Shown here piece by piece: positions 355 through 40,209 of a stretch of DNA of 40,209 nucleotides. Position 1 is the stretch's first letter. Every line of letters begins with the position of its first letter. The notes beneath the pieces were generated by a model that did not search any database, was not told where the DNA came from, and saw only the letters and a program-made list of their open reading frames with translations. Source of the DNA: Kayfunavirus T147P5; sequence record OZ035809.1. One strand, given 5' to 3'. The position numbers and the translations under genes were made by a program.

Positions 355-759
355 ATGGAAGGACAATATTTAAGCGGTGGTTACTATAAAGTAACTATCA
401 ATGGTAAGGTTCACGGGGTTCATCGGGTTAAATGGGAGATGGCGCATGGGCCAGTTCCGGCTGGCTACGTCATTGACCATATAGACCGGAACACTCTGAA
501 CAATGAGCTATCAAACCTAAGGGCAATACCTAAAGGCGCTAATGGTGCTAATACCTTATCGTCTAGAGAGTTACCAAAAGGAGTCTACTCACGGTTCGCT
601 AAAAGGCTTAACGCTACAGTGTACTATGGAGACATACGCATTGGTGGCATCAAGAGAACCCATGAGCCTACTACCAATCTACAGAAAGTTGAGGACTGGG
701 CTAAAGAGGCCCACGCAAATCTTCTTAAGGAGGTGTATGGTGTGGTTAACGTTTATTAA
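355..759 (+). CDS. HNH homing endonuclease
   Basis: RBS AGGAGG 345-350; 134 aa with HGVHRVKWEMAHGPVPAGYVIDHIDRNTLNNELSNLR (classic HNH motif); inserted between terminase small subunit and spanin, overlapping the spanin start. Confidence 0.8.
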   Translation: MEGQYLSGGYYKVTINGKVHGVHRVKWEMAHGPVPAGYVIDHIDRNTLNNELSNLRAIPKGANGANTLSSRELPKGVYSRFAKRLNATVYYGDIRIGGIKRTHEPTTNLQKVEDWAKEAHANLLKEVYGVVNVY

Positions 760-6428: not shown

Positions 6429-6433
6429 TTCTG

Positions 6434-20851: not shown

Positions 20852-20874
20852 ACTAAACTATCACTATAGGGACT
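20852..20874 (+). promoter_or_regulatory. phage RNAP promoter (phi6.5-like)
   Basis: CTAAACTATCACTATAGGGACTT; +1 about 20869. Confidence 0.8.
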
Positions 20875-20935
20875 TTAGGACCTAAGATATGACTATAAGA
20901 TAGACTTTAGTCTTAACTTAAAGAGGAGATTCAAG

Positions 20936-21208: not shown

Positions 21209-21222
21209 CTGTAGGAGGGACT

Positions 21223-21447: not shown

Positions 21448-21451
21448 GACA

Positions 21452-22097: not shown

Positions 22098-22486
22098 CAC
22101 CATGTCATGAATGGGGTGGATACTGCACCAAGGATGGCTACGGTGAAACTAGGGTAGATGGGCGCAAGGTTCGCGTTCATCGCCTAGAGTGGACGAAACA
22201 CTACGGACCCATTCCGCATGACAAAGTGGTTCGCCACAAGTGTGACAACCCTAAGTGTTTTAATATTGAACACCTAGAGTTAGGAACAACACAGGATAAC
22301 ACGGCTGACAGAGTGTCTCGTGGTCGAAGCGCCAAAGGAGAGGATAACGGTAACGCCATCCTCACTATTGATATTGTTAATGAGATTCGCGAAAGTAGCA
22401 TGTCTCAGCGCAAAATAGCGAAGACCTATGGAGTGTCACAGTCTACCGTATCTAAAATCAAACGCAATGTAACGTGGAGGTCATAA
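22094..22486 (+). CDS. HNH homing endonuclease with C-terminal helix-turn-helix (T7 gene 7.7 position)
   Basis: VVRHKCDNPKCFNIEHLELGTTQDNTADRVSRGRSAKG; C-terminal QRKIAKTYGVSQSTVSKI HTH-like; paralog of 16499 and 33145. Confidence 0.85.
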   Translation: MTPCHEWGGYCTKDGYGETRVDGRKVRVHRLEWTKHYGPIPHDKVVRHKCDNPKCFNIEHLELGTTQDNTADRVSRGRSAKGEDNGNAILTIDIVNEIRESSMSQRKIAKTYGVSQSTVSKIKRNVTWRS

Positions 22487-22487
22487 C

Positions 22488-24056: not shown

Positions 24057-24074
24057 ACTATCACTATAGGAACA
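24052..24074 (+). promoter_or_regulatory. phage RNAP promoter (phi9-like)
   Basis: CCTAAACTATCACTATAGGAACA; overlaps portal stop. Confidence 0.8.
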
Positions 24075-24145
24075 ACGTCTGGTCTACAATTTGTAGGTTT
24101 CTAGTCCAGTTGTTCCTACCATTTCAATCAAAGGAGAATGACTCA

Positions 24146-25069
24146 ATGTCCCAATCAGTTTATGCCGAGTTCGGCGTTAGCCCTAATGCAATCACTGGCT
24201 CCGTTGAGGACCTTAACGAACACCAGAAGTCTATGCTTGAACAGGACGTAGCTGTTCGCGATGGCGATGACGCTATTACCTTCAAGCAACTGGAAGCCGA
24301 AAACGAAGAGGCGACCGAAGAAGACGAGAACGTCGAAGAGGCTGAGGGTGAAGAAGACCACGAGTCCGATGACGAAGAGTCTGAGACCGATGGTGAGCAG
24401 CCTGAGTTCATCGAACTAGGTGATGCACCGAAAGAGCAGCCTGAGTTCATCGAACTAGGTGATGCACCGAAAGAGCTGACTGAAAGTGTCACCGCTCTGG
24501 ATGAAAACGAAGCTGCATTTGACGACATGGTGTCTTCTGCTGTAGAAGCTGGCAAGGTCACTGCTGATGAAATTACCGCTATCAAGGCTGAATACGCCAA
24601 GGACGGTAAGCTGTCTGACGCATCCTACGCTAAGTTGCAGGAAGCAGGTTACACCAAGCGCTTCGTAGATTCGTTTGTCCGTGGTCAGGAAGCTCTGGCT
24701 GAACAGTATGCCGCTGGTGTGGTTCGCTACGCTGGTGGTGCTGAACAGTTTAATCGCATCCTGTCACACCTTGAGTCCAACGACCCGTCAACTCGTGAAG
24801 CACTGGAAGCTGCTATCGTTCGTAAGGACATTGCGACTACCAAAGCTCTGCTGAATCTGGCTGGCAAGACTCTTGGTAAAGCTGTAGGCGTTAAACCTCA
24901 GCGTACCATCACCAATCAGGCTAAACCTGTGGTAGCACCTAAGGCTACTAAGACCGAAGCATTCAGCTCTAAGGCTGACATGATTAAGGCTATGAGTGAC
25001 CCGCGATACCTGCGTGACGCTAAGTACACGATGGAAGTGCGCGCTAAGGTAGCTGCATCGAGCCTGTAG
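24146..25069 (+). CDS. capsid assembly scaffolding protein (T7 gp9-like)
   Basis: Start at ATG 24146 (RBS AAGGAG 24131-24136) rather than 24110; acidic; VRDGDDAI, SYAKL.E.GYTK.FVDSFVRGQEALAEQY, IKAMSDPRY match T7 gp9. Confidence 0.85.
   Translation: MSQSVYAEFGVSPNAITGSVEDLNEHQKSMLEQDVAVRDGDDAITFKQLEAENEEATEEDENVEEAEGEEDHESDDEESETDGEQPEFIELGDAPKEQPEFIELGDAPKELTESVTALDENEAAFDDMVSSAVEAGKVTADEITAIKAEYAKDGKLSDASYAKLQEAGYTKRFVDSFVRGQEALAEQYAAGVVRYAGGAEQFNRILSHLESNDPSTREALEAAIVRKDIATTKALLNLAGKTLGKAVGVKPQRTITNQAKPVVAPKATKTEAFSSKADMIKAMSDPRYLRDAKYTMEVRAKVAASSL
24395..24472 (+). repeat. perfect 39-bp tandem duplication inside the scaffold gene
   Basis: GAGCAGCCTGAGTTCATCGAACTAGGTGATGCACCGAAA occurs twice back to back (24395-24433, 24434-24472), encoding EQPEFIELGDAPK x2 in frame. 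Confidence 0.9.
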
Positions 25070-25070
25070 G

Positions 25071-25093
25071 ACTAAACTATCACTATAGGGAGA
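25071..25093 (+). promoter_or_regulatory. phage RNAP promoter (phi10-like, strongest consensus match)
   Basis: TAAACTATCACTATAGGGAGACC with GGGAGA initiating sequence; about 100-nt leader before capsid gene. Confidence 0.85.
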
Positions 25094-25195
25094 CCAAGAG
25101 ACAGACTCAAGGTTTCCCTATTACTTCAGTCCATACGGATTGGGCGTACAGTAAGTAATAAACTTTATCTTTCAATTGAATAGGAGAATTATCAT

Positions 25196-26245
25196 ATGGC
25201 AAACGTTCCGGGTCAGAAAGTTGGTACAGACCAAGGTAAGGGCAAATCTGGTTCCGACGCTCTGGCGTTGTTCCTGAAGGTCTTTGCTGGCGAAGTCCTG
25301 ACCGCATTCACTCGCCGCTCTGTAACTGCTGACAAGCATATTGTCCGTACCATTCAGAACGGTAAGTCTGCTCAGTTCCCGGTCATGGGTCGCACCTCTG
25401 GTGTGTATCTAGCTCCTGGTGAGCGACTGTCCGATAAGCGTAAAGGTATCAAACATACCGAGAAAGTGATTACCATTGATGGTCTGCTGACTGCCGATGT
25501 GATGATTTTCGACATTGAAGACGCGATGAACCACTATGACGTGGCTGGCGAGTACTCCAACCAGTTAGGTGAAGCTCTGGCTATCGCTGCCGATGGTGCG
25601 GTACTGGCTGAGATGGCCATTCTGTGTAACCTACCGGCTGCATCTGATGAAAACATCGCTGGTCTTGGCAAAGCGTCTGTGCTGGAAGTTGGTACTAAAA
25701 CCGACCTGAACACCCCTGCTAAACTGGGTGAAGCAATCATCGGTCAACTTACCATCGCTCGTGCGAAACTGACCTCCAACTACGTACCTGCTGGCGACCG
25801 TTACTTCTACACCACGCCTGACAACTACTCTGCGATTCTGGCTGCTTTGATGCCTAACGCTGCTAACTACGCTGCTCTGATTGACCCTGAGACGGGCAAC
25901 ATCCGTAACGTAATGGGCTTCGTTGTGGTTGAGGTTCCGCACCTGACTCAGGGTGGTGCTGGTGAGACTCGTGGTGACGATGGTATCACTATCGCTTCCG
26001 GTCAGAAGCACGCCTTCCCAGCTACTGCCACTGGTGATGTTAAAGTTGCTCTGGACAACGTTGTGGGTATGTTCTCTCACCGTTCTGCGGTGGGTACCGT
26101 TAAACTGCGTGACTTGGCGCTGGAACGTGACCGTGACGTCGATGCTCAGGGCGACCTGATTGTTGGTAAGTACGCTATGGGTCACGGTGGTCTGCGTCCT
26201 GAAGCAGCGGGCGCACTGGTTTTCACAGCAGCGTCAGCGGGTTAA
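25196..26245 (+). CDS. major capsid protein (T7 gp10A-like)
   Basis: 349 aa; GTDQGKG, LALFLKVF.GEVLTAF, DKRKGIKHTEKVITIDGLLTADV, NHYDV, ALMPNAANYAALIDPE, MGHGGLRPEAAGA nearly identical to T7 gp10A. Confidence 0.96.
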   Translation: MANVPGQKVGTDQGKGKSGSDALALFLKVFAGEVLTAFTRRSVTADKHIVRTIQNGKSAQFPVMGRTSGVYLAPGERLSDKRKGIKHTEKVITIDGLLTADVMIFDIEDAMNHYDVAGEYSNQLGEALAIAADGAVLAEMAILCNLPAASDENIAGLGKASVLEVGTKTDLNTPAKLGEAIIGQLTIARAKLTSNYVPAGDRYFYTTPDNYSAILAALMPNAANYAALIDPETGNIRNVMGFVVVEVPHLTQGGAGETRGDDGITIASGQKHAFPATATGDVKVALDNVVGMFSHRSAVGTVKLRDLALERDRDVDAQGDLIVGKYAMGHGGLRPEAAGALVFTAASAG

Positions 26246-26508
26246 CGACCTTTAAGGCCCTCTCTACCGAGGGTCCTACCTTAGAGACGTATAGTTCTAC
26301 GGTGGGAACCAGCTTGAAGGTTGACTTCCCGGAGCTTTCAGATGTGACCGACTGGTCGCTGCTTGATGTTACTACGCCTGATGGTGTTAGTTACTCCCGT
26401 AGAACCAACAGTCTCTACTTCAAGGCCACCTCTGGCGTGGAAGGTCTAGTGATTGTTGAGTATGACGGTTCGCCTGTGCGTTCCTTCAACGTATCTTTCA
26501 CAAACTAA
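25196..26508 (+). CDS. minor capsid protein 10B-like; product of putative programmed -1 frameshift near 26218-26224
   Basis: Heptamer G GTT TTC lies 7 codons before the gp10 stop; the -1 frame is open from 26224 to TAA 26506-26508 and contains ORF 26302-26508. Confidence 0.5.
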
Positions 26509-26512
26509 TTGA

Positions 26513-26550
26513 AACCCCTTGGGTGCCTTCGGGTGCTTGAGGGGTTTTTT
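26513..26550 (+). terminator. T-phi-like intrinsic terminator after the capsid gene
   Basis: AACCCCTTGGGTGCCTTCGGGTGCTTGAGGGGTTTTTT: long GC-rich stem with UUCG loop and U-tract; very similar to T7 T-phi as recalled. Confidence 0.85.
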
Positions 26551-26568
26551 GCTTAAGGAGTAAAACCT

Positions 26569-27135
26569 ATGGCTCAATACGTTCCACTGAATGCTAACGA
26601 TGACTTAGATGCCATCAACGATATGTTAGCAGCTATCGGTGAACCAGCAGTCCTACAACTTGACGAAGGCAACGCTGACGTCTCGAACGCTCAACGTATC
26701 CTGCATCGTGTCAATCGTCAGGTCCAAGCTAAAGGCTGGAACTTTAACATCAACGAAGCTGCTGTCCTGACGCCTGATGTCCAAGACAACAGGATTCGAT
26801 TCCTGCCGTCTTACCTTCGGGTCATGACTGCTGGGGCCACCAGCTACTACAGCAACATGGGTGGATACCTATACGACCTGTCAACTCAGTCAACCACTTT
26901 TACCGACCCTATAACGGTAGAGCTTGTTGAGATGAAACCGTTCTCTGAGATGCCTGTGGTATTCAGGGACTACATCGTTACCAAGGCCAGCCGTGAGTTC
27001 AACGCTAAGTTCTTCGGTAGCCCAGAGTCTGAACTGTACCTTCGTGAGCAGGAAGCAGAACTCTATCAGCAGGTCATGGAATACGAGATGGACACTGGTC
27101 GCTACAACATGATGTCCGACATCGGGAGGGACTAA
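26569..27135 (+). CDS. tail tubular protein A (T7 gp11-like)
   Basis: 188-aa ORF immediately after the T-phi-like terminator; RBS AAGGAG; size and position as T7 gp11. Confidence 0.88.
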   Translation: MAQYVPLNANDDLDAINDMLAAIGEPAVLQLDEGNADVSNAQRILHRVNRQVQAKGWNFNINEAAVLTPDVQDNRIRFLPSYLRVMTAGATSYYSNMGGYLYDLSTQSTTFTDPITVELVEMKPFSEMPVVFRDYIVTKASREFNAKFFGSPESELYLREQEAELYQQVMEYEMDTGRYNMMSDIGRD

Positions 27136-27362
27136 TGGCTAGTCACAACCTGAAGATTCACCGCCAGCACTTTGGGCCGGTACAACTAGGTCTAAAGACA
27201 GCAGAGCTGAGACTTAACGACCGGGACTTTAAGGTTGGCGACTGGCTTATCCTGAATGAGTGGGACAACGGGTATACTGGACAGCAGGTAGCACGTAAGG
27301 TTGTCCACATTGCTGACGTTGGTAACATCGCTGAGGGATACGTCCTAATGAGTATGATTTAA
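27135..27362 (+). CDS. hypothetical small protein inserted between tail tubular genes (possible ASCH/PUA-like fold)
   Basis: 75-aa ORF, ATG overlaps gp11 stop; no T7 counterpart; the fold suggestion is from general appearance only. Confidence 0.5.
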   Translation: MASHNLKIHRQHFGPVQLGLKTAELRLNDRDFKVGDWLILNEWDNGYTGQQVARKVVHIADVGNIAEGYVLMSMI

Positions 27363-27371
27363 GGAGGGCAT

Positions 27372-29729
27372 ATGCCGCTTATTACGCAAAGCATAAAAAA
27401 TCTTAAGGGTGGCATTAGCCAACAGCCTGACATCCTGAGGTTCTCAGACCAAGGCGAGGCTCAAGTTAACTGCTGGTCATCCGAGAGTGATGGCCTCCAG
27501 AAGCGTCCACCTACAGTCTTCAAGCGACGTCTTAACATCGACGTTGGGAGTAACCCTAAGTTCCACCTGATTAACCGTGACGAGCATGAGCAGTATTACA
27601 TCGTGTTCAATGGGTCCAACATTCAGGTAGTTGACTTGAGTGGTAATCAATACTCAGTTTCAGGTGCGGTAGATTACGTTAAGTCGTCCAACCCGCGAGA
27701 TGACATCCGTGTCGTTACCGTTGCAGACTATACGTTCATCGTGAACCGTAAGGTCGTCGTTAAAGGTGGAAGCGAGAAGTCACACTCTGGTTATAATCGT
27801 AAAGCTCGTGCTTTAATCAACCTGCGTGGTGGACAGTATGGTCGCACCCTTAAGGTAGGAATCAACGGAGGCGTTAAGGTTTCGCATAAGCTGCCAGCAG
27901 GTAATGATGCCGAGAATGACCCACCTAAGGTGGATGCTCAGGCCATCGGTGCAGCTCTGAGAGACCTTCTTGTTGCTGCTTACCCTACCTTCACGTTCGA
28001 CCTTGGGTCTGGATTCCTGTTAATCACTGCCCCTTCAGGGACTGACATTAACTCAGTGGAGACGGAGGATGGCTACGCTAACCAGCTAATCAGCCCAGTC
28101 CTAGACACGGTGCAAACAATCTCTAAGTTGCCTCTTGCGGCTCCAAATGGGTACATCATTAAGATTCAAGGTGAGACCAACAGTAGCGCCGATGAATATT
28201 ACGTGATGTATGACTCCAATACTAAGACGTGGAAGGAGACAGTAGAGCCGGGAGTGGTCACTGGGTTCGATAGCACCACAATGCCACATGCTCTGGTGAG
28301 ACAATCTGACGGATCCTTTGAGTTCAAGACTCTGGACTGGTCTAAGCGAGGTGCTGGTAATGATGACACAAACCCTATGCCTAGCTTCGTGGATGCTACG
28401 ATTAACGATGTGTTCTTCTACAGGAACAGGCTAGGGTTCTTGTCAGGAGAGAACGTAATCATGAGCCGTTCAGCCAGCTACTTTGCGTTCTTCCCTAAGA
28501 GTGCTGCGACACTGAGTGATGATGATCCTATTGACGTAGCTGTAAGTCACCCTCGAATCTCAATCCTTAAGTATGCCGTTCCGTTTAGCGAGCAGCTACT
28601 ACTTTGGTCGGATGAGGTTCAGTTCGTGATGACAAGCTCTGGGGTACTTACCTCGAAGTCTATCCAGCTTGATGTAGGCTCAGAGTTTGCCTTAGGCGAT
28701 AATGCCAGACCGTTCGCTGTAGGACGCTCAGTCTTCTTCTCAGCGCCTCGTGGGTCATTCACCAGTATTAAGCGATACTTCGCTGTAGCAGATGTGTCTG
28801 ACGTGAAGGATGCTGATGATACCACTGGCCACGTGCTGTCCTATATCCCTAACGGGGTGTTTGACATTCAAGGTACAGGGACTGAGAACTACATCTGCGT
28901 CAACTCTACAGGTGCATACAACCGAATCTACATCTACAAGTTCTTGTTTAAGGACGGCGTACAGCTCCAAGCATCTTGGTCGCACTGGGAGTTCCCTAAA
29001 GCTGATAAGATTCTGGCGTCTGCGTCGATTGGCTCAACCATGTTCATTGTTCGACAGCATCAAGGCGGCGTGGACCTTGAGCATCTTAAGTTCATCAAGG
29101 AGGCAACTGACTTACCATTAGAGCCGTATAGACTCCACGTTGACTCCAAGGTGTCTATGGTAATACCAATTGGCTCATACAACGCTGACACCTATAAGAC
29201 TACGGTTGACATTGGTTCTGCTTATGGTGGAAACGCACCGTCTCCCGGTCGGTACTATCTTATTGATAGTCAGGGTGCCTACGTGGACATTGGTGAATTG
29301 ACCGACATCTCAACTGTGGCTATACTCAATGGCGATTGGTCAGGACGTACAGTGTTCATCGGGCGGCCTTATCTGATGTCCTACAAGTTCTCACGGTTCC
29401 TGATTAAGATTGAAGACGAGAGTGGCACTCAGTCTGAAGACACTGGTCGTCTACAGCTTCGTCGGGCTTGGGTCAACTACAAAGACACTGGCGCTCTGAG
29501 ACTCATTGTCAGAAACGGTGAGCTGGAGTTCGTGAATACCTTCAACGGGTACACCATTGGTCAGCAAACCATCGGGACTACCAACATTGGGGATGGACAG
29601 TATCGCTTCGCTATGAATGGTAACGCATTAACCACGAGTCTAACCTTAGAGTCAGATTATCCTACCCCAGTGTCCATCGTTGGCTGTGGCTGGGAGGCGT
29701 CATACGCTAAGAAAGCTCGTTCCGTCTAA
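27372..29729 (+). CDS. tail tubular protein B (T7 gp12-like)
   Basis: 785-aa ORF; RBS AAGGAGG; size and position as T7 gp12. Confidence 0.9.
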   Translation: MPLITQSIKNLKGGISQQPDILRFSDQGEAQVNCWSSESDGLQKRPPTVFKRRLNIDVGSNPKFHLINRDEHEQYYIVFNGSNIQVVDLSGNQYSVSGAVDYVKSSNPRDDIRVVTVADYTFIVNRKVVVKGGSEKSHSGYNRKARALINLRGGQYGRTLKVGINGGVKVSHKLPAGNDAENDPPKVDAQAIGAALRDLLVAAYPTFTFDLGSGFLLITAPSGTDINSVETEDGYANQLISPVLDTVQTISKLPLAAPNGYIIKIQGETNSSADEYYVMYDSNTKTWKETVEPGVVTGFDSTTMPHALVRQSDGSFEFKTLDWSKRGAGNDDTNPMPSFVDATINDVFFYRNRLGFLSGENVIMSRSASYFAFFPKSAATLSDDDPIDVAVSHPRISILKYAVPFSEQLLLWSDEVQFVMTSSGVLTSKSIQLDVGSEFALGDNARPFAVGRSVFFSAPRGSFTSIKRYFAVADVSDVKDADDTTGHVLSYIPNGVFDIQGTGTENYICVNSTGAYNRIYIYKFLFKDGVQLQASWSHWEFPKADKILASASIGSTMFIVRQHQGGVDLEHLKFIKEATDLPLEPYRLHVDSKVSMVIPIGSYNADTYKTTVDIGSAYGGNAPSPGRYYLIDSQGAYVDIGELTDISTVAILNGDWSGRTVFIGRPYLMSYKFSRFLIKIEDESGTQSEDTGRLQLRRAWVNYKDTGALRLIVRNGELEFVNTFNGYTIGQQTIGTTNIGDGQYRFAMNGNALTTSLTLESDYPTPVSIVGCGWEASYAKKARSV

Positions 29730-29736
29730 CTTATTG

Positions 29737-29786
29737 AAGGGCCTATAGATTTACCTTAACTATCACTATAGGGACTATAGGCCCTT
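29737..29786 (+). promoter_or_regulatory. 12-bp perfect inverted repeat (RNA hairpin, R13-like) enclosing the phi13 promoter
   Basis: AAGGGCCTATAG (29737-29748) and CTATAGGCCCTT (29775-29786) are exact reverse complements; the promoter lies in the loop. Confidence 0.5.
29754..29776 (+). promoter_or_regulatory. phage RNAP promoter (phi13-like)
   Basis: CCTTAACTATCACTATAGGGACT; +1 about 29771. Confidence 0.8.
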
Positions 29787-29805
29787 AAGGTTATAAGGAG
29801 ACTTT

Positions 29806-30276
29806 ATGTATATTCGCAAGGCTACGGAACCAGATGTCCACTACTTTCTGTGGCATCTTTCAGCAGATGATGTTAATGAATGCAAAGCAAACTACGGGTC
29901 AACCGTGGGTCTCTCTGAGAGACTGCTTAAGCACCTATCTCCATCATCTGTGGTTTTAACGAACGGTGTAGGTGAAGTGTTTGCCTATGGTGGAAACCAA
30001 GGGGATAACGTATGGTTCTTGACTTCTGGTCTGGTCTACAAGCTGGGGACTAAAGAGAAGCGAGAGTTCATAAAGTGTATCTCTGAGTACAGGGACTTAA
30101 TGTTAGACCAATACGGGACCATCTGGAACTACGTGTGGTCAGGCAATAAGTCTCACATTAAATTCTTGAAGTTGCTTGGCGCTAAATTCCATGATGATTG
30201 GACTGTAAGCCCGGTAACTGGTGAGAGTTTTCAACTATTCACTATCTCTAAGGAGGACGTATGTGCGAGCCAGTAA
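29806..30276 (+). CDS. internal virion protein A (T7 gp13-like, by position)
   Basis: 156-aa ORF with RBS AAGGAG between gp12 and gp14 homologs. Confidence 0.65.
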   Translation: MYIRKATEPDVHYFLWHLSADDVNECKANYGSTVGLSERLLKHLSPSSVVLTNGVGEVFAYGGNQGDNVWFLTSGLVYKLGTKEKREFIKCISEYRDLMLDQYGTIWNYVWSGNKSHIKFLKLLGAKFHDDWTVSPVTGESFQLFTISKEDVCASQ

Positions 30277-30848
30277 GTATCGGCATGGGTATTATGGCTG
30301 TAGCTGGTGCCGCTATGTCCGCTTCTAGTCAGGCCAAAGCTGAGGGTGCTGCTATCGACGCTCAGAACCGTCAGGCTCAGGAGATGGTTAAGCAGATGAA
30401 CTACTCTGACGCCAACCTGAAGATGCAGGAGCGAGACCTGAAGGAGCAGCAGATGGCTGAACTGACAGAGACCACGTTAAACGGTATCCGCAATCAGGGT
30501 ATGGTCCGAGCTGCGGTAGCTGAGTCAGGTCTGGAAGGTAACTCTATGGACAGGATTGAACGTCAAGTCGCGGGAGACACAGTCAAGGAGAGAGCCGGGA
30601 TTACCGAAAGCTACAACCGTGACTATGCGGCTATCTTCGGGAACCGTATCGCCAACATTGAGAACACCAAGTCTGCTATCCGTGGTCAAGGTAAAATCAT
30701 CAAGACCAGCCCACTAGCTCATGCACTTAATGTTGCTAACGCCGGGATGCAGGGGTACGCTGCTGGTAAGTCAATATCTGGGGCATCAAGCTCTGGTGGT
30801 TCTGCACCGATTAGTGCTGCTAAAGGCACACCTACAGGTCATAGCTAA
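30261..30848 (+). CDS. internal virion protein B (T7 gp14-like)
   Basis: 195 aa; N-terminus MCEPVSIGMGIMAVAG, NYSDANLKMQERDLKE, LEGNSMDRIER, YNRDYAAIFG resemble T7 gp14. Confidence 0.8.
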   Translation: MCEPVSIGMGIMAVAGAAMSASSQAKAEGAAIDAQNRQAQEMVKQMNYSDANLKMQERDLKEQQMAELTETTLNGIRNQGMVRAAVAESGLEGNSMDRIERQVAGDTVKERAGITESYNRDYAAIFGNRIANIENTKSAIRGQGKIIKTSPLAHALNVANAGMQGYAAGKSISGASSSGGSAPISAAKGTPTGHS

Positions 30849-30859
30849 GAGGAGGACTA

Positions 30860-33142
30860 ATGGCTAGTAATATTGAATCAGCTCTGGCTAATCGGACTAT
30901 GGGTCGTGGCAGAGCGCCGGGTAAAACTATAGCCGTCAACTATCAAGCAGCCAGCGTTCAGGCTCCAACTGGTGACTCCGGTCTGGCTCGTGCGTTAACC
31001 AACTTCGTTGAGTCTGGAACTGGATTGTACAAGCAGTTCAAAGATGATGAGAAGACACGGGCTGACGAGCGGTCTAACGAGATTATCCGTAAGCTGACTC
31101 CTCAGCAGAGACGAGAGGCTATCCAGAACGGGACACTGCTGTATCAGGACGACCCGTATGCTATGGAAGCACTTCGAGTCAAGACTGGTCGTAATGCTGC
31201 CTTTGCTGTAGACGACGAGATTAACGTTAAGATTCAGAACGGTGAGTTCCGTACACGTCAGGACATGGAAGAGTATCGCCACCAGCGACTTCAGGACGCC
31301 GCTAAGTCCTATGCTGAAGAGGCGGGTATTAACCCTACAGACGAGTTCTTCCAGCGAGGGTTCAACGATAGCATCACAGACCGCAACATCGCTATCTATG
31401 GGTCCTTCAATAAGTATTTCAGTAAGCAGTCTGAAGAGACAGCAATGTTGAATACTCGTATTGAGATGAACTCATTCCTGAACGATGGCGACCTGATGCG
31501 TTCACCTGAGTCTGGCAAGACCTTCATGGCCTACCTTCGTGATGGACTAACTACTGCTGCTATCCCTTCGGACCAGCGAGCACGGGAGGTAATTACCCAG
31601 ACGGTCCGTGACGCAATCCAGAAGTCAGGCGGCTCCAACTTCCTACAGCAAGTACGAGGCGAGCGAATCACCCTTAACGGTGTGGATGCTACAGTCGAAG
31701 AGATTGTAGGACCTGATGTCTTCAACGCTGCTATTGTTGAGGCGCAAGGAACTGAGTACAAGCTGGTGGCTAAGTATCAGGAGGACTTAGCGTTAGGCGT
31801 TCAGTCTGCGATTCTTCAGGACGACCCAACCATCGGTCTGGACCAGATTCAGAAACTCAAGGAGCAGAACAACCTGCTTCAACCGGGTGAAGAACTCACG
31901 CCTCAGCGTCAGATGCTTATTAATGCCGAAGCCAGCTTGCTTGAAGCGGTAAAGCGTAAGTCTGCTGAACAGGCGAAGGAGAACACTAAGTTAATCCAGA
32001 CTCAGAACAAGCAACTGGTCATTGACCAAGTGTATCAGCGACGTCTGGCTGGGGACAACGTGTCCACCAACTATGAGGACCTTCCAGTCTCAGATGCTAC
32101 AGGCGAGTTCAAGCGTTCTGACATGAACAACTATGCGTCTGCCAAGCTACAGCAGATTGACCAGATGGACATACCTGAGGCTGCTAAAGACGCTCAGAAG
32201 GTGGCATTGTTAAGAGCTGACACTAACAACGGTCCGTTCCGTAATGCCTTCCAGACTCTAACTCAGGACGCTGCTGGCGAGTGGCAAGCTGCGGTCATCC
32301 GTGGGCAGTACGACCCAGACAAGATGCAACGCTTCGAGTCTCTTCGTCGTGCCTACACTCAGGACCCTTCAAGTTTTGCAGCTCTGTATCCTGACCAAGC
32401 TCAGTTGTTCTCTACGTTCGACCAGATGGACAAGATGGGTCTGGACCCTCAGACGATGATTGAAGCTGATAAGCAAGCTGCAAGTCAAAGCCGTGAGATG
32501 CGCATGGAGTCAGACAAGGCGTGGCAGGAGTTGAAGAACGACTCTCGGAATAAGGACCTTTCGCGTCTTCCTACGTCTCTGGACTCAAGTGCTCGTAAGG
32601 TCTGGGACTCATGGTACTATCGTACAGGTAACGCTGACGCTGCAACTCAGCAGACTCAACGCTGGCTGAATGAGAACACCGTAACGTTCCAGTCTGAGGG
32701 TTCTGACGGTAAGTCCATCGGCATGGTGTCGAAGCACCAGCTTATGGTCGGGGATAACCCAGAGTCTTGGCAGGTGGGTCGAGATATTATAGACACCGCT
32801 CGTCAGCAGCTCATTAAGGCTAACCCTTGGGTAGTGAACTCTCAGTTGTCCGTTGTTGAACAGAACGGCTCTATCTTCCTCCAAGACGCTACAGGGACTA
32901 TTCGTATTCGCTACGATAAAGAACTTGTAGGTAAACTCTACCGCGAACAACAGCAGAAGGCACAAGATGCCGCATACGATCAGGCAGAACGTGACGCTAA
33001 CAAGCGAGCGCGTATCGTCGGGACTAAAGCTGCTGGTGACAAACGTCGAGCTGACCGAGAGGCCAACATCGAGAAGCGCGGTGGGATGTACAATGACGTC
33101 TCACTGGAGGGTATCGCAAACGCACTAATCGGTAAGGAGTAA
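30860..33142 (+). CDS. internal virion protein C (T7 gp15-like)
   Basis: 760-aa ORF with RBS GAGGAGG; size and position as T7 gp15. Confidence 0.8.
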   Translation: MASNIESALANRTMGRGRAPGKTIAVNYQAASVQAPTGDSGLARALTNFVESGTGLYKQFKDDEKTRADERSNEIIRKLTPQQRREAIQNGTLLYQDDPYAMEALRVKTGRNAAFAVDDEINVKIQNGEFRTRQDMEEYRHQRLQDAAKSYAEEAGINPTDEFFQRGFNDSITDRNIAIYGSFNKYFSKQSEETAMLNTRIEMNSFLNDGDLMRSPESGKTFMAYLRDGLTTAAIPSDQRAREVITQTVRDAIQKSGGSNFLQQVRGERITLNGVDATVEEIVGPDVFNAAIVEAQGTEYKLVAKYQEDLALGVQSAILQDDPTIGLDQIQKLKEQNNLLQPGEELTPQRQMLINAEASLLEAVKRKSAEQAKENTKLIQTQNKQLVIDQVYQRRLAGDNVSTNYEDLPVSDATGEFKRSDMNNYASAKLQQIDQMDIPEAAKDAQKVALLRADTNNGPFRNAFQTLTQDAAGEWQAAVIRGQYDPDKMQRFESLRRAYTQDPSSFAALYPDQAQLFSTFDQMDKMGLDPQTMIEADKQAASQSREMRMESDKAWQELKNDSRNKDLSRLPTSLDSSARKVWDSWYYRTGNADAATQQTQRWLNENTVTFQSEGSDGKSIGMVSKHQLMVGDNPESWQVGRDIIDTARQQLIKANPWVVNSQLSVVEQNGSIFLQDATGTIRIRYDKELVGKLYREQQQKAQDAAYDQAERDANKRARIVGTKAAGDKRRADREANIEKRGGMYNDVSLEGIANALIGKE

Positions 33143-33144
33143 AC

Positions 33145-33594
33145 ATGAAGAACGGGACAGCCAGTGAGAGACTGGCAGAACTGTCAGTAACGGAAGAGTC
33201 TGGCTGTATCCGATTCACAGGCCACTTAGACGGAGAAGGATACGGAAGGATAATGGTGGCTAGGGTTAAGTATATGGCACATCGTCTCTCCTACTCCCTA
33301 AATAAGGGGCCAATACCAGATGGCTATGTTGTTAGGCATAAATGTGATAATCCATCATGCATAAATCCTGAACACCTTGAAGTAGGAACTCAGGCTGACA
33401 ACATTGCAGATAAGGTTTCCAGAGGCCGACAGGCAAGAGGGAGTGGAGCAGGAAGAGCTATACTGACAGAGGAATCTGTTAGGGAAATACGCTCCAGTCC
33501 ATTAAAAGTATCTGAGCTTTCCACCTTATACGGGGTAAGCGTCGTTTCCATACGAAATATATTGAGGAGAAAGACATGGCAACACGTGGTGTAA
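33145..33594 (+). CDS. HNH homing endonuclease with C-terminal helix-turn-helix, inserted between gp15 and gp16
   Basis: YVVRHKCDNPSCINPEHLEVGTQADNIADKVSRGRQARG; paralog of 16499 and 22094; overlaps gp16 start by 19 nt. Confidence 0.85.
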   Translation: MKNGTASERLAELSVTEESGCIRFTGHLDGEGYGRIMVARVKYMAHRLSYSLNKGPIPDGYVVRHKCDNPSCINPEHLEVGTQADNIADKVSRGRQARGSGAGRAILTEESVREIRSSPLKVSELSTLYGVSVVSIRNILRRKTWQHVV

Positions 33595-36500
33595 GGAACG
33601 CAAATCCGGGTAATATCCGTAAGTCCAAAGACCAGTGGGAAGGTGCTATAGGCGATGATGGTGCATTCGTTATCTTCGACAGTCCTGAATCTGGGGTACG
33701 AGCATTAGCGAAAAACCTTCAAAGCTACGGTCGCCAAGGTTATGACTCTATCGAGAAGATTATCAACAGATGGGCACCTCCGAGCGAGAACGACACTCAG
33801 TCCTACATCGACTCGGTTGTATCTGCGACTGGTATTCCTGCAACTCAAAGTCTCGACCTATCGGACCCTGACACCCTGTCTTCTCTGGCACAAGCTATCG
33901 GCTTCCATGAGACAGGCTCCCGGTACGACCCTGAAGTCTACAAACAGGGAGTTGCACGAGCACTCAATGGCATTAGCCCAAAGACTCCACCAGTAAGCGC
34001 TAACGTATTTGACGCACTCACGGAAGGATTAAAGTCGAAACCTAAAGTATCTCTGGGTGAGAACCTTCCGACCGCTGCTGGTTTGAACATTGAGGGTCAA
34101 GCACCTGAAGCTCCCAACGAATCGTTCGGTGAGATGTTCTATAAGGCTACTGGAGAGACCATGCAGGAGCGAGAGGAGCGCTCTACGTGGTTCGGTTTTG
34201 GTTCTGCTACAGAAGCTGAAGTGAAGAACTCTATGGTAGGCGTGGCTATCCGCGCTGGTCAGACTGAGGACTCACTGGATGTCATTGGCGACGTGTTCAA
34301 CCCGACCCGCTGGAACAACCATAAGTGGTCTCGTGAGGAGCTGGACCAGATTCGTAACGCTGGGGTTCTGCCTCAGTATTATGGGGTAATTACTGGTGGG
34401 TCTCCTCAGAACCTGACCGAGCTTATTAACTTGGCTCTTGAGAACCAGAAGTTGGACCAAGAGAAGGCCAAGGCTGGGACTGGTGCTCAGTTAACTGCTG
34501 GTGTGATTGGTGCTGGTGTAGACCCTCTGACATACGTTCCTATCGCTGGACAGGTTGGTAAAGGTGGTAAGCTGGTCAATAAGATGTTCACCGTGGCTGC
34601 TCAATCTGGAGCACTGGCTGGTGTGTCCGAGATGGCCCGTACCTCAGTGGCTGGTGGTGATGCTCATGTGGCTGAAGCTATCCTTGGTGGTGCTCTCTTC
34701 GGTGGTGGTATGACTGCTATCGCCGATGGGTTAGGCAGAGCCTTAGGCCGCAACACTAATGAGTTCGCTGGCCCAGCTACACGTCTGGAAGCTCGTGAGA
34801 CCGCTCGTAATGTTGATGGTCAGGACCTGTCTCGTCTCCCTATTCAGGAAGGTGAGCATACCTTTAGTCATCAAGGCGTTAAGTTCGCTGACGTTCCTAA
34901 CGAGCCGGGTAGTGTACGACTTGAAGATGGTTCAATCCTGATTGGTGAGAACCCTCTGAACCCTAAGACACGTCAGGTCTTTGACGAAGTGATTGAGCCT
35001 GAACGTGCCGCTGCTGGTGTGAACCTTGGTGGTCTTACTGAGATTGGCCTGAAGCTGCTTCGGTCTGAGAACCCTGAGATTCGTGGAGTAGCTGCTGACT
35101 TAGTGCGTTCACCGACTGGTATGCAGTCTGGGGCCTCAGGTAAAATCGGGACAACTGCGTCAGACGTGTTCGAGAGACTTCGTGCTGTGGACCATCGGTT
35201 CTACAACGACATCGACGATGCGGTTACTGAGGCGCTCAAGGACCCATACTTCCAGACAGCATTCTGGCGAGACTCTGGCGCATTCCGTCAGGACATCTAC
35301 CAGCGTGTGTCTATGGCTATCGAAGATGGTAGTGGGAACCTGAAGGCTGAACTAACTCCGGGAGAACTGAAAGTCTACGACCTGCTGAAGAACCAGTTTG
35401 ACGCCAAGCGTGAGATGATGGAGAACCCAGCTATGTTTGGTCGGCCAGACGCTCAGTCTATCTTTCCGGGTAGCCGCTTCAAGGGGACCTACGTCCCGCA
35501 TGTGTATAGCAACCAGATGAAGGAGCTGTACATCAAGGAGCTTGGAAGCCCAGAAGCGCTACAGGAGGCCATCAAGAAGTCATGGTTGACAAGCTATGCG
35601 TCTCGACCTGATGTCAAGAAACGCGTGGACGAGGCACTCTTAGAGGCTGACCCTACGTTGACTCCAGAGGGACTTGCTGCTGCGGTCGATAAGTACGCCA
35701 ACGATAAGGCTTACGGTATCTCTCACACCGAGCAGTTCGAACGCTCATCCGTAATGGAAGAGAATATCAACGGTCTGGTGGGTCTGGAGAACAACAGCTT
35801 CCTTGAGGCTCGTAACCTGTTCGATAGCGATATGTCAATCGTCCTGCCTAACGGTCAGACCTTCAGTGTCAACAACCTGCGTGAGTGGGACATGGACAAG
35901 ATTGTCCCGGCCTACAACCGTCGAGTTAATGGCGATATTGCTATCATGGCTGGTACAGGCAAAACCACGAAGGACATGAAGGACTTGGTTGAGACCATGA
36001 TGAACAAGGCCGGGGATGACGGTAAGTTGAAAGGTGAGGTATCTACCTTACGTGACACCTTGAAGATTCTCACTGGTCGTGCTCGACGTGATGGGGCTGA
36101 TGATGCAGCCTTCGCTACAGTGATGCGTACAATGACAGACCTATCGTTCTTCACTAAGAATGCCTATATGGGTGTTCAGAACTTGACGGAGATTGGTGGT
36201 ATGCTGGCTCGCGGCAACGTTCGTGCTCTGCTGCATGGAGTCCCGATGTTCCGTGACCTAGCCTTCCGTAACAAGAAGGTAGGGGCTTCAGAGATTAAGG
36301 ACCTGCACAATGTTATCTTCGGTAAGGAACTGGATGACTCAATCCGTCCGTCTAAACAGGATGTCATTGACCGTCTGCGGTCTTACAGTGACCTAGGTCG
36401 TGGTGCAGCTACAGCTCTGGGGACTGCCAAGTATTACACTGGTGAACTTGCAGTACGCTCTCCGTTCACTAAAGTCCTCAATGGTACGACCAACTACCTG

Positions 36501-37463
36501 TTAGATGCTGGACGTCAAGGATTCCTGTCTGACATCGTGGAGCATAGCTTGACTGGTAGTAAGCGTAAGTTCGATGACCGCTGGCTGAAGACAGCTGGTA
36601 TCTCAGACGAGCAGTGGAAGGGCATTAAGTCCCTAATCCGTGAGTCAGTGACTCGTGGTCCAGACGGGAAGTACACCATCAAGGATAAGAAGGCGTTCAG
36701 TCAGGACCCAAGGGCTATGGACCTGTGGCGTATGGGTGACACCATCGCTGACGAAACGTTACTCCGTCCTCATAAGCTGTCCAACATGGACGCCAAGGCT
36801 TATGGTCCTATCGCTAAGACTGTCCTTCAGTTTAAGAACTTCGTCATCAAGTCCATCAATGGGCGAACCATGCGTACCTTCTATAACGCCACGAAGAACA
36901 ACCGAGCGATTGACGCTGCACTATCGACCGTGATGTCTATGGGTCTGGCTGGTATCTACTACATGGCTCAGGCGCACATCAAGGCTTATGCTATGCAGGA
37001 TGGTCGAGACCGTGACTACCTTAAGCAAGCTCTGGACCCGACGATGATTGGTTATGCGGCTCTGTCCCGTAGTTCACATCTGGGTGGCCCACTTGGGGTA
37101 GCTAACATTCTAGGAGGCATCGCTGGGTATGAGGACACTAAGATGCTCCGTTCGTCTATCCTACCTCGTTCGCCTACAGAGAAGCCTGAACGTGCCATCA
37201 CGTTTGGTGCAGCTACAAGTGACCCTGTGATGAATGTTGTTGGTAACTTCTTGGAGCAGGTTCCAGCTTTCGGATATGCTGCTAACGTTGGCGTTTCTGC
37301 TTACAACTTGGCTGGCTACCTCAAGGCTGATACTCGTGTCAACGAGCGAGACTACATGACCGGGATGTATAACACCTTCCGTGAACTGGTTCCGAACGAC
37401 CCGATTACTCAGAAGCTGTTGCTTGGAACGTTTGAGGAGCAAGGCATCCACATCAAGGACTAA
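33576..37463 (+). CDS. internal virion protein D (T7 gp16-like ejection protein)
   Basis: 1295-aa ORF; internal blocks FGF..A.EAE..NS.VG.A.RAG, TRWN.H.W..EELD.IRN, ITGGSPQNL..LI.LA.EN, AGVIGAGVDPLTYVP, SVAGGDA match T7 gp16 as recalled; N-terminal 150 aa may differ from T7. Confidence 0.85.
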   Translation: MATRGVRNANPGNIRKSKDQWEGAIGDDGAFVIFDSPESGVRALAKNLQSYGRQGYDSIEKIINRWAPPSENDTQSYIDSVVSATGIPATQSLDLSDPDTLSSLAQAIGFHETGSRYDPEVYKQGVARALNGISPKTPPVSANVFDALTEGLKSKPKVSLGENLPTAAGLNIEGQAPEAPNESFGEMFYKATGETMQEREERSTWFGFGSATEAEVKNSMVGVAIRAGQTEDSLDVIGDVFNPTRWNNHKWSREELDQIRNAGVLPQYYGVITGGSPQNLTELINLALENQKLDQEKAKAGTGAQLTAGVIGAGVDPLTYVPIAGQVGKGGKLVNKMFTVAAQSGALAGVSEMARTSVAGGDAHVAEAILGGALFGGGMTAIADGLGRALGRNTNEFAGPATRLEARETARNVDGQDLSRLPIQEGEHTFSHQGVKFADVPNEPGSVRLEDGSILIGENPLNPKTRQVFDEVIEPERAAAGVNLGGLTEIGLKLLRSENPEIRGVAADLVRSPTGMQSGASGKIGTTASDVFERLRAVDHRFYNDIDDAVTEALKDPYFQTAFWRDSGAFRQDIYQRVSMAIEDGSGNLKAELTPGELKVYDLLKNQFDAKREMMENPAMFGRPDAQSIFPGSRFKGTYVPHVYSNQMKELYIKELGSPEALQEAIKKSWLTSYASRPDVKKRVDEALLEADPTLTPEGLAAAVDKYANDKAYGISHTEQFERSSVMEENINGLVGLENNSFLEARNLFDSDMSIVLPNGQTFSVNNLREWDMDKIVPAYNRRVNGDIAIMAGTGKTTKDMKDLVETMMNKAGDDGKLKGEVSTLRDTLKILTGRARRDGADDAAFATVMRTMTDLSFFTKNAYMGVQNLTEIGGMLARGNVRALLHGVPMFRDLAFRNKKVGASEIKDLHNVIFGKELDDSIRPSKQDVIDRLRSYSDLGRGAATALGTAKYYTGELAVRSPFTKVLNGTTNYLLDAGRQGFLSDIVEHSLTGSKRKFDDRWLKTAGISDEQWKGIKSLIRESVTRGPDGKYTIKDKKAFSQDPRAMDLWRMGDTIADETLLRPHKLSNMDAKAYGPIAKTVLQFKNFVIKSINGRTMRTFYNATKNNRAIDAALSTVMSMGLAGIYYMAQAHIKAYAMQDGRDRDYLKQALDPTMIGYAALSRSSHLGGPLGVANILGGIAGYEDTKMLRSSILPRSPTEKPERAITFGAATSDPVMNVVGNFLEQVPAFGYAANVGVSAYNLAGYLKADTRVNERDYMTGMYNTFRELVPNDPITQKLLLGTFEEQGIHIKD

Positions 37464-37482
37464 ACTATCACTATAGGAAACG
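37460..37482 (+). promoter_or_regulatory. phage RNAP promoter (phi17-like)
   Basis: CTAAACTATCACTATAGGAAACG; overlaps gp16 stop; upstream of tail spike gene. Confidence 0.8.
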
Positions 37483-37528
37483 GGACGCTACCATAGGTCC
37501 CATTTAATTCAACACTTAAGGAGGCCCA

Positions 37529-40003
37529 ATGGCTGCAACATTCAATGACTATCCAATACAAGGCACTCAGTACCGAGTAGAGTTCCCATACTTAGCACGA
37601 CCATTCGTCCTTGTATACCTAACGTCCTCAGACCCTCTGGTAGCTCCTCTCCTACTTAGACTTAACTCAGAGTACACTTTCATGTCACCATATCTGATTA
37701 ATATCAGTGTTGCTATGGCTGGATATAATGGAGTACGTTTAGTCCGACAGACATCCTCAACACCGTTAGTAAACTTTGTAGATAGCTCAGCACTAACCGC
37801 TGGAGACCTCACAGTTGCCGAGGTTCAATCTATCCATATTGCAGAGGAGGCAAGGGACCAAACCTTCTCAATGACCAAGGAGATGGTAGACGCAGCACGG
37901 GCTTATCTTGATGAGATTGAGAAAGCGCTAGAGGAGATAAACAAGATTCTGGCAAACGGCTTCAATCCTGTAGGGTCGTTCGAGTCTGGTGCTGAAGTAA
38001 CGATTCGAAATGACACGGTTAGCTTAGGGTTCGGTTCATCCATTCAGTATTTCCAGTGGTGGGGTCAATTACCAAAAACTGTACCAGCGGGTTCAACACC
38101 AGAGTCAACTGGTGGATTAGGTAAAGGTAAATGGGTCCCAGTAGGTGATGGTCAGTTGCGCTCTGAGATTACTGTTCTGGACAGTATTAAGGACCTATTG
38201 TCATCTGCACAGGGTCTTGGTACTGTGCGTTCTGTAAAGGGGTACATCTCAGGTACAGACTTCGGTGGTGGTGACTTCTTGTGGGACCCAACATGTCCAC
38301 GGTCTAAACATAACGGCATCACAATATTCAGCCCAACGGTTCCATTCAGCGGCCTGTACGCAGACGTTCCGAGTTTCCACGCAGGGGTAGGAGAAACAGC
38401 ACCTGCCGAGACTGGCTGCTGGAGACGTAAGGATTGTGGACGTAAGCTATTACTGGCTTGGGGTGGAGTGGATGTATCTGGTACTCAACCAGTTGACGCT
38501 ATCTTGACTAGCATGTGTTCGTATGCACACAACACACGTCAGATTCTTGACGCAGAACCTAATGATGAACTTCAGGCTGGATTCTCGACAGGGACTCAAA
38601 CAAAGGATAAGTTCAACGGCTTCACCCAAGCGTCTGTCGTGCTAGAGAATAAGTACGTCACCCTTAGAGGTAACGGAGCTAAGATTAAGACCTATCACCC
38701 AATCCACAAGGAGCGCTCTGTGTTTGTCCTACGAAATGGTGGATATAACATCTCAGGGTTCAAATGGAACGATGGGTATACTGATTTCAGCATAGCACCG
38801 TCTGATACGCAGCATAAGCAGGGTGAATGGTGGCTTGGAATAGTTGCGGATGGCGGTGTAACTCTTGTGGCTGAAGACAACGAAGTAACTGCTGCGCAAT
38901 ACTTTGTCAGGGCTGATGTATTCAATGGTACGTCATGGAATGAGCGTGTATCGGTGCGCAAGAATAAATTCGCATATGTAACGAACTACTGCTTCCTTAG
39001 CCGCAAGCTTCGTCACTATGAGTTTAGTTACAACGAGGTTAGACACAATGGTAGGGAGTGGCATACCTATGGTGAAGCCTGTGCTCCTACTACCTATACC
39101 ACACACTCTGTTATCAGGAGTAATAACTTCTACAATCAGATTGCAATCCAATCGTGTATAACACCCGGTTCATACCACGAGTCGTGTTTAATCGTGAACA
39201 ATCACTGCGAGAGATATCAGGGTATCTTTGTAGAGATTGGGTCATCTAGCAATATTAGCATCCTAAATAACAGCTCCTATTCAACTGGAGAACGTAACGG
39301 GGCGCACATATTGTTGGTATCAGGAGATGTTGATGATGAACCTGCTGGAGGACTGAGTAACCTAATCATCAATGGTAACGTGTTTAAAGGTGGTGGTATG
39401 GTCGTGCGCGAGTATAACACTGGTACGCCAAAACGGTGGGGTATTTCGATTACCAATAACCACATGATTGACTGCCCTCTACCCACAATGACCAACTCTG
39501 CCTACAACTGCATAACTTTCTCAGGAAACTACTGTGAGCCGCCAGCGGACTTCCCGTTCCTTGCGATTGGTGGTAGGAATCCAATTATCGAGAATAACGT
39601 CCTACGAGGAGTGTCTATTAAGATGAGGGACTTAGGGTATCACATCGTAGGACTAACAGTTAGGAACAATAAGTTTGTGGACGGCGCTACTGTGCAGAAC
39701 TTCACTGCTGCAATCGACATGAACTATTACTCCAGACTTGTGGCTGAAGGTAACGACTTCACGGAATACACCTGTCAGTCAATCTTAGCACTTCCTATTA
39801 ACTCAGTTGAGGTGGGCTTCCACAGACTTGGCTCGGCAGAAGGACTTAAGGATACTCCTACTGCGTTATTTGGTGCAAAACTTACTGACGCATTTGCTGG
39901 AGATTTTGTGGCATGTTCCGACCCGCTGTCAAAAGGCGCATATGGATGGGTTATGATGAATGAACCTAATAAAACTTGGGGCAAGATTAACCTAACAACG
40001 TAA
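37529..40003 (+). CDS. tail spike: T7 gp17-like N-terminal adaptor domain fused to a large beta-helix (putative polysaccharide depolymerase) C-terminal domain
   Basis: 824 aa; N-terminal about 150 aa (RVEFPYLARPFV, DLTVAEVQSIHIAEEARD) resemble T7 gp17 N-terminus; remainder has repeated IxxNN/GN strands (LIINGNVFKGG, ISITNNHMIDC, IIENNVLRGVSI, LTVRNNKFVDG). Confidence 0.85.
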   Translation: MAATFNDYPIQGTQYRVEFPYLARPFVLVYLTSSDPLVAPLLLRLNSEYTFMSPYLINISVAMAGYNGVRLVRQTSSTPLVNFVDSSALTAGDLTVAEVQSIHIAEEARDQTFSMTKEMVDAARAYLDEIEKALEEINKILANGFNPVGSFESGAEVTIRNDTVSLGFGSSIQYFQWWGQLPKTVPAGSTPESTGGLGKGKWVPVGDGQLRSEITVLDSIKDLLSSAQGLGTVRSVKGYISGTDFGGGDFLWDPTCPRSKHNGITIFSPTVPFSGLYADVPSFHAGVGETAPAETGCWRRKDCGRKLLLAWGGVDVSGTQPVDAILTSMCSYAHNTRQILDAEPNDELQAGFSTGTQTKDKFNGFTQASVVLENKYVTLRGNGAKIKTYHPIHKERSVFVLRNGGYNISGFKWNDGYTDFSIAPSDTQHKQGEWWLGIVADGGVTLVAEDNEVTAAQYFVRADVFNGTSWNERVSVRKNKFAYVTNYCFLSRKLRHYEFSYNEVRHNGREWHTYGEACAPTTYTTHSVIRSNNFYNQIAIQSCITPGSYHESCLIVNNHCERYQGIFVEIGSSSNISILNNSSYSTGERNGAHILLVSGDVDDEPAGGLSNLIINGNVFKGGGMVVREYNTGTPKRWGISITNNHMIDCPLPTMTNSAYNCITFSGNYCEPPADFPFLAIGGRNPIIENNVLRGVSIKMRDLGYHIVGLTVRNNKFVDGATVQNFTAAIDMNYYSRLVAEGNDFTEYTCQSILALPINSVEVGFHRLGSAEGLKDTPTALFGAKLTDAFAGDFVACSDPLSKGAYGWVMMNEPNKTWGKINLTT

Positions 40004-40047
40004 TATAACTTTGGGTCACGGACGACCCGCTTTAAACTGGAGGTTTT

Positions 40048-40209
40048 ATGATTGAGTTAGACTTCAAGAATGAGGTCCTTAAAGCCTCTCCTATCGTCGG
40101 GACCGCTGCGGCTGATGGTGCCAGTCGGTTCTTCTTCGGACTTACACTGAACGAATGGTTCTACGTTGCAGCTATCGCGTACACCGTTGTCCAGATTGGT
40201 GTTCTAGTC
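40048..40209 (+). CDS. class II holin (T7 gp17.5-like), 3'-truncated by window end
   Basis: RBS CTGGAGG 40037-40043; MIELDFKNEVLKASPIVGTAAADGASRFFFGLTLNEWFYVAAIAYTVVQIG nearly identical to T7 gp17.5; ORF runs off the window in frame. Confidence 0.8.
   Translation, partial: MIELDFKNEVLKASPIVGTAAADGASRFFFGLTLNEWFYVAAIAYTVVQIGVLV

Follow-up and report, generated by a model that had tools for sequence, protein, structure and literature searches.

The horizontal transfer of spike modules, including a conserved junction motif, has been documented among the Kayfuna-, Kaguna-, Gamaleya- and Kutterviruses (PMC10408124). Within the genus Kayfunavirus, phages such as Vec13, Penshu1, Ro103C3lw and K1F have in the same genome slot an exchangeable body that is situated behind a conserved junction (PMC10408124). 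The spikes of Vec13 and Penshu1 share with the spike described here a front end composed of a T7-type tail anchor (PF03906) and a Tail_spike_N domain (PF18668), at 44-53% identity; their bodies, in contrast, are unrelated to it, with Vec13 displaying a different β-helix (PF12708 and PF13229) and Penshu1 a GDSL esterase of the G7C gp63.1 type. Given that these sister phages carry other bodies on the same front end, spikes are the norm in Kayfunavirus. A preliminary description of the locus had implied that a spike in place of a T7-type fiber is a rarity, which is at odds with these sister spikes and with the published pattern (PMC10408124). Body exchange is the usual route of host change in the genus, and the present finding is in this respect an ordinary one: modular exchange, the Tail_spike_N junction and β-helix bodies in Kayfunavirus are all already documented (PMC10408124), and our understanding of such systems is unchanged by it.

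The window, i.e. the whole analyzed stretch of 40,209 nucleotides from Kayfunavirus T147P5 (OZ035809.1), is a complete, closed and circularly permuted T7-like genome of 40.2 kb. The 17.5 kb region from 20000 to 37500 shows ~95% identity to Vec13, LM33_P1 and many other coliphages. The spike gene lies between the genes for gp16 (upstream) and a holin (downstream), and the latter is a 64 aa ORF that starts at 40048 and crosses the end of the window to position 33. It is followed by genes for the small terminase subunit, the spanins and the large terminase subunit, in that order. The same gene layout is seen in a near-identical phage contig (L002), and a 97%-identical spike protein (P0001) is encoded in a near-identical phage contig of an ENA metagenome. 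The features of the locus are:

37463..37481, + strand: phage RNA-polymerase promoter, AACTATCACTATAGGAAAC, upstream of the spike gene and within the conserved backbone
37518..37524, + strand: Shine-Dalgarno element AAGGAGG, seen in the sequence 4 nt before the ATG of the spike gene
37529..40003, + strand: tailspike gene in the gene-17 position, a replaced cassette; ORF of 824 aa with an ATG start
37529..37873, + strand: tail-attachment (anchor) domain of the T7 gp17 type, aa 1-115 (PF03906)
37874..37963, + strand: linker or neck from the anchor to the Tail_spike_N domain, aa 116-145, from the alignment to 9lna and 9vvr
37964..38149, + strand: Tail_spike_N domain of the CBA120 TSP/G7C type, aa 146-207 (PF18668)
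38150..38170, + strand: flexible hinge or module boundary predicted from low pLDDT, aa 208-214
38171..38536, + strand: predicted α/β sub-module before the helix, aa 215-336, with mixed helices and strands in the AF2 model
38537..39778, + strand: right-handed parallel β-helix in the AF2 model, aa 337-750, presumed to be the domain for polysaccharide binding and catalysis
39779..40003, + strand: small C-terminal domain, aa 751-824, and the stop codon; strands and one helix (model residues 619-676)

The promoter is the counterpart of the T7 gene-17 promoter, and its core, AACTATCACTATAGG, occurs in 10 copies on the + strand as against 0.01 expected. It lies inside the backbone homology to Vec13 and Penshu1, which extends to 37531. 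A search for an intrinsic terminator after the spike gene recovered only a weak hairpin (40013-40028, z -1.3), and we claim no terminator there.

Examination of the nucleotide alignments reveals that the limits of this backbone homology practically coincide with those of the ORF. In blastn comparisons Vec13 and Penshu1 are 89-92% identical as far as 37531, i.e. the start codon, beyond which no identity is seen until 40007, 4 nt past the stop codon, where it returns at 97%; the Vec13 alignment remains collinear across the spike junction. Only two short DNA islands inside the gene, corresponding to aa 85-112 and aa 180-214, are shared with Vec13 or Penshu1. In a search across genera for the published 44-nt junction motif, only Penshu1 has a significant DNA island (38068-38169, 73.5% identity), the matches to VTCCBPA_322 and Vec13 in this position being non-significant with an E-value of 1.4. 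At the protein level identity to Vec13 and Penshu1 is 44-46% in the anchor and 52-53% in the Tail_spike_N domain, so that the anchor is unusually divergent for phages with ~95% backbone identity. Thus, as compared with these relatives, the whole ORF is replaced here and not the body alone, and recombination would have exchanged the entire ORF while the rest of the backbone stayed ~95% conserved. A megablast search with the spike gene found no match among 50,697 phage records, which indicates that it is not a known allele.

The front end of the protein can be assigned with the help of both Pfam models and solved structures. The PF03906 model matches aa 13-113 (54.1 bits as against a gathering cutoff of 25.2; E 1.9e-14), and T7 gp17 chains (7boz and 8dsp) cover aa 8-113 of the spike in alignments, a stretch that represents the part common to the two proteins, namely the N-terminal tail-attachment domain. 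The match to T7 gp17 had earlier been put at the first ~150 aa; the match itself stands, but it ends at aa ~113-115. Even the full-length gp17 chain (7boz, 553 aa) yields an alignment restricted to aa 8-113. The spike is unrelated to gp17 past aa ~115, being devoid of its coiled-coil shaft, pyramid and tip, and we rejected the possibility that the whole protein is a T7-type tail fiber: gp17 residues ~150-553 have no counterpart in it, and the fold of aa 146-824 is that of a β-helix protein.

Two solved spikes, 9lna (E 1e-51) and 9vvr (E 9e-45), for which a literature search returned no relevant paper, can be aligned past the anchor without a break, over aa 4-215. No Pfam model matches the linker at aa 116-145, and this is followed by a PF18668 match over aa 146-207 (59.5 bits as against a gathering cutoff of 25; E 3.4e-16), a model for the N-terminal domain of CBA120 TSP1 and G7C gp66, with the CBA120 TSP1, TSP3 and TSP4 chains also matching this domain. 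Immediately after it lies the sole segment with a pLDDT below 50 in the AF2 model of aa 146-824 (model residues 62-69, i.e. aa ~207-214). Similarity to the spikes of the same genus stops entirely at this hinge, with none past aa 215. Judged by these sequence comparisons, the Tail_spike_N domain appears to be the conserved junction ahead of an exchangeable body, and the mosaic layout of the spike matches the modular exchange described in PMC10408124.

The region following the junction had been described as a β-helix spanning the remaining ~670 aa. A helix is indeed present (aa ~337-750), but the region is not a single domain, as five parts can be distinguished past aa 146. An AF2 monomer model of aa 146-824, built from a 40-sequence alignment, has a mean pLDDT of 91.4 and a pTM of 0.84. 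Foldseek searches with it against the PDB recovered as top matches the CBA120 TSP3, TSP4 and TSP1, Fri1 gp49, Det7 and HK620 tailspikes and the GH110 enzymes (E 2e-10 to 1e-5), and phage spikes were likewise matched in a fold search of the BFVD. The check by structure prediction thus bears out the proposal that a parallel β-helix tailspike replaces the T7 fiber, and the β-helix fold of aa 337-750 is confirmed at the level of the predicted model. The helix would be right-handed and parallel, with roughly a dozen rungs.

The repeats on which the helix had originally been proposed need some qualification. The four peptides quoted in their support are present, at aa 612, 639, 686 and 709. The claim of many IxxNNxxxG repeats is overstated, since the literal motif occurs once (aa 686), but the rung signatures themselves are real: a relaxed motif, [ILV]x[ILV]xxNx[ILVFM], is found in 5 copies as against 0.42 expected, a count reached by none of 2000 shuffles. 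The four peptides together with a further one, ITFSGNY (aa 662), are spaced by 27, 23, 24 and 23 aa, and in the AF2 model each of the five sits where a predicted strand begins. The quoted peptides are true rung signatures, but they mark the C-terminal half of the helix only.

In sequence searches the helix is much less readily connected to known proteins. The Pfam Beta_helix model (PF13229) scores 22.1 bits on the spike itself, i.e. below its gathering score of 25.9, but relatives rise above this cutoff (29.2 bits for VTCCBPA_322 and 28.0 bits for P0058), and the helix has distant relatives that score above the Pfam cutoffs of Pect-lyase_RHGA_epim (PF12708) as well as of Beta_helix. An NCBIfam search of the spike returned nothing meaningful. 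Profile searches of the PDB were run with two alignments, A1 and a broader A2, with profiles from 40 and 27 homologues; they matched the front modules and recovered no solved or characterized homologue of the helix by sequence or profile, other than a marginal match to the GH110 enzyme PpaGal (E 0.011, improving to 0.0013). This match involves rungs that lie apart from the catalytic site of GH110. The helix is only 10-16% identical to the solved spikes and depolymerases CBA120 TSP2-4, Fri1 gp49, Depo32, HK620 and Det7, and likewise to the GH110 and GH87 hydrolases, AlgE4 and WceF. With identities this low, and with GH110 (E 0.0013) as the sole profile match, catalytic residues are not transferable from the solved enzymes. 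The family itself nevertheless offers a set of conserved positions: no exchange is seen at E395, R396, N471, R509, T513, E516, E569 and Y629 in relatives with as little as 23% identity, and D360, E433, W435, D463, Y487, R492, W511 and H593 of the helix are near-invariant. On the strength of this conservation these positions, acidic and aromatic residues among them, are candidates for the active site, with the acidic E395, E516 and E569 and, from the near-invariant set, E433 and D463 as the candidates for catalysis or sugar binding.

Of the two parts that flank the helix, the sub-module at aa ~215-336 is common to hundreds of otherwise different spikes and is separately mobile: when 1.84 billion representatives were searched exhaustively, 475 representative matches were mostly limited to query residues ~5-125, whereas the whole body was matched at E<1e-30 by only ~10 clusters at 50% identity. 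It is also matched by PHROGs 27346 and 32929. The small C-terminal domain has no match to Peptidase_S74 or any other Pfam model, and searches with the models for endosialidase-type chaperones (PF13884, PF12218/PF12219) found nothing at E-values up to 1. It diverges more than the helix, with 44% as against 75% identity to the closest relative, VTCCBPA_322.

This relative is a 765-aa spike, annotated as a hypothetical protein, of a Gamaleyavirus infecting Escherichia, and it carries the closest body in the phage records. Its sub-module is 77% identical to that of the spike in the window and its Tail_spike_N domain 37%, with a nucleotide identity of 72% over 38240-39591; in contrast to the present spike, its virion context is N4-like or G7C-like and the T7 anchor is absent from it. 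The body as a whole belongs to a family recognized by PHROG 24092 (aa 210-808, E 1.2e-115) and by PF27114 ('Phage_tail_beta'), the latter match being available in precomputed form for P0001 (97% identical) and for most homologues. This family is also seen in Kagunavirus (Ivi and 536P11), in Vectrevirus (T147P1), in Rtp-like siphoviruses (phiEB49 gp24 and ACG-M12 orf47) and behind P22 head-binding domains (PF09008) in prophages of Salmonella, E. coli and Morganella. The Ivi spike has 47.5% identity in the sub-module and ~48% throughout, and the Kagunavirus, Vectrevirus, Rtp-like and P22-like relatives as a group show 35-51% identity over aa ~210-820; they have other anchors and virion types, and their identity is too low for specificity to be transferred. 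Taken across the family, the fronts to which the body is joined are of the T7, P22 head-binding and Tail_spike_N types, in phages and prophages of E. coli, Salmonella, Citrobacter and Morganella. The spike is thus a tail anchor of the T7 type joined to a β-helix of the sugar-cutting type that was acquired from unrelated phages.

We propose that the protein is a modular receptor-binding tailspike whose imported β-helix most likely cleaves a surface polysaccharide, a reading that we regard as probable. The gp17-type anchor (aa 1-115) would fix the spike to the tail, and the Tail_spike_N domain with the hinge would serve as the conserved junction, behind which the imported sub-module, the parallel β-helix and the small C-terminal domain would make up the receptor-binding body. 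By analogy with the solved relatives of its front end, of which 9lna has 3 chains and 9vvr has 18, we infer that the spike is a homotrimer, with six trimers per tail. The helix would bind the host surface polysaccharide and presumably cleave it enzymatically, and this cleavage would bring the short tail to the outer membrane. The data at hand are best read as recognition of a surface polysaccharide. As for its nature, the P22-like head-binding slot usually carries O-antigen endoglycosidases. Given that the body recurs in spike slots of P22-like prophages and in phage genera specific for O-antigens, the distribution of its homologues suggests that the receptor is probably an O-antigen of Enterobacteriaceae rather than a capsule. 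When the DNA of the body was compared by blastn with 5,426 complete E. coli genomes, no close prophage copy was found that could tie it to a serogroup, the only matches being 6 partial ones at ~65% identity, too weak to be of use. Since PHROG 24092 and PF27114 are without a solved or biochemically characterized member, we also suggest, tentatively, that this body represents a distinct glycan-cleaving family, possibly new to CAZy and with an unreported O-antigen specificity, which would have been acquired along with the divergent anchor as a whole-ORF cassette.

The helix could alternatively be a polysaccharide lyase with an acidic capsule or EPS of the K-antigen or colanic-acid type as its substrate, and not an O-antigen hydrolase. 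In the fold searches, however, hydrolases such as GH110, GH87, CBA120 TSP2 and HK620 score equally well, and the sole enzymatic hint at the sequence level is the above-mentioned match to the GH110 enzyme PpaGal. The occurrence of the body behind head-binding domains in P22-like prophages and the invariance of several acidic residues also speak against a lyase, and we consider it unlikely. A second alternative is that the spike is a non-catalytic β-helix adhesin, which would bind its polysaccharide, or some other receptor on the surface, but leave it intact. The invariant charged residues make such a role less likely: E395, R396, R509, E516 and E569 persist down to 23% identity across different anchors and hosts, as is expected of an active site, and the solved β-helix spikes of phages in our match lists are nearly all enzymes. 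We accordingly give the adhesin little credence, less than the lyase. A branched system of the KP32, K11 or CBA120 type, with this spike as its first part and its Tail_spike_N domain docking a second receptor-binding protein, has two points in its favor: PF18668 stems from the branched complexes of CBA120 and G7C, and the closest relative of the body is encoded by one of two neighboring large genes (1029 aa and 765 aa), otherwise without annotation, of a Gamaleyavirus, and for this genus two receptor-binding proteins have been described (PMC10408124). Such a system is nevertheless highly improbable and was rejected because the second gene is absent: gp16 and the holin flank the spike gene with no second spike gene beside it, the closed 40.2-kb genome contains no further ORF above 400 aa that lacks an assignment, and contig L002 is laid out in the same way.

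Returning to the favored reading of a polysaccharide-cleaving spike, the host range of such phages is determined by their tailspike bodies, which are used both as serotype-specific depolymerases and in the engineering of phage host range. The present locus adds an uncharacterized body family on a T7-like chassis, and its clean start-to-stop boundaries are practical for spike swapping. One relative provides a lead with regard to hosts: phage ACG-M12 lyses all four of the O6:H1 isolates tested and CFT073, and it also lyses O14, O18ac, O25:H1, O135:H6 and rough strains (PMC3347319). An O6 specificity for the present spike was rejected as too weakly founded, given the 35% identity and the mixed host pattern, and is retained as a lead only; were this weak host pattern of the relatives to hold, the body could be an O6-related or other UPEC-relevant depolymerase.

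The tail anchor of the 824-aa spike is only 44-46% identical to the anchors of phages with about 95% backbone identity, an identity that extends to the tail tube proteins, the docking partners of the anchor. Its first ~28 codons instead show about 80% DNA identity to Enterobacter phages and YZ1. Anchor diversity within the genus seems to be larger than "conserved at genus level" implies. A second segment of the spike precedes the β-helix:

37529-37873, + strand: tail anchor of the spike, aa 1-115
38171-38536, + strand: spike sub-module, aa 215-336

This sub-module is common to hundreds of spike representatives whose other parts show no match, and is matched by the PHROG models 27346 and 32929, while a search of the local Pfam copy gave no match to it. 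In its distribution it acts as an independent, exchangeable unit. In the Gamaleyavirus Escherichia phage VTCCBPA_322, two large neighboring genes (2554-7992) code for products of 1029 aa and then 765 aa, both labeled 'hypothetical protein' in the record. The second is a spike combining Tail_spike_N with a β-helix that is 75% identical to that of the window, and the size and position of the first suggest that it is the other receptor-binding protein of this genus.

The start of the window contains an inserted gene and two overlapping ORFs:

346-751 (ORF 355..759), + strand: HNH homing endonuclease gene (PHROG 99, E 4e-23)
542-1177, + strand: mechanically listed ORF of 211 aa
843..1112: o-spanin ORF, embedded in the 542-1177 ORF

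The HNH insertion lies between the genes for the small terminase subunit and the spanins. It is missing from the sister phages Vec13 and Penshu1 and from a metagenomic phage contig (ENA ERZ14864638 NODE_632), whose alignments skip from 345 to 752. Apart from this stretch, which it lacks, the contig is nonetheless 98% identical to the window. It has its own HNH_3 gene (contig positions 8298-8475), located 3' of the large terminase subunit gene and not in the interval from the small terminase subunit gene to the spanin genes; thus, two otherwise near-identical genomes carry homing endonucleases at differing sites. The 211-aa ORF is probably over-extended: its Rz-like i-spanin match is limited to residues 69-210, and the homology of relatives to this region begins at 752.

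A further ORF spans the end of the window into its start:

40048-40209 joined to 1-33: holin ORF of 64 aa

It overlaps the ATG of the small terminase gene (position 30), and the Vec13 alignment is collinear through the same junction. Together these observations establish that the window is an entire genome, closed and circularly permuted, in which any terminal repeat has been collapsed. The phage RNA polymerase promoter core AACTATCACTATAGG occurs 10 times in the window, against a chance expectation of 0.01, and only on the + strand:

3035, 6438, 9504, 11365, 12330, 20856, 24056, 25075, 29758 and 37463, + strand: promoter core copies
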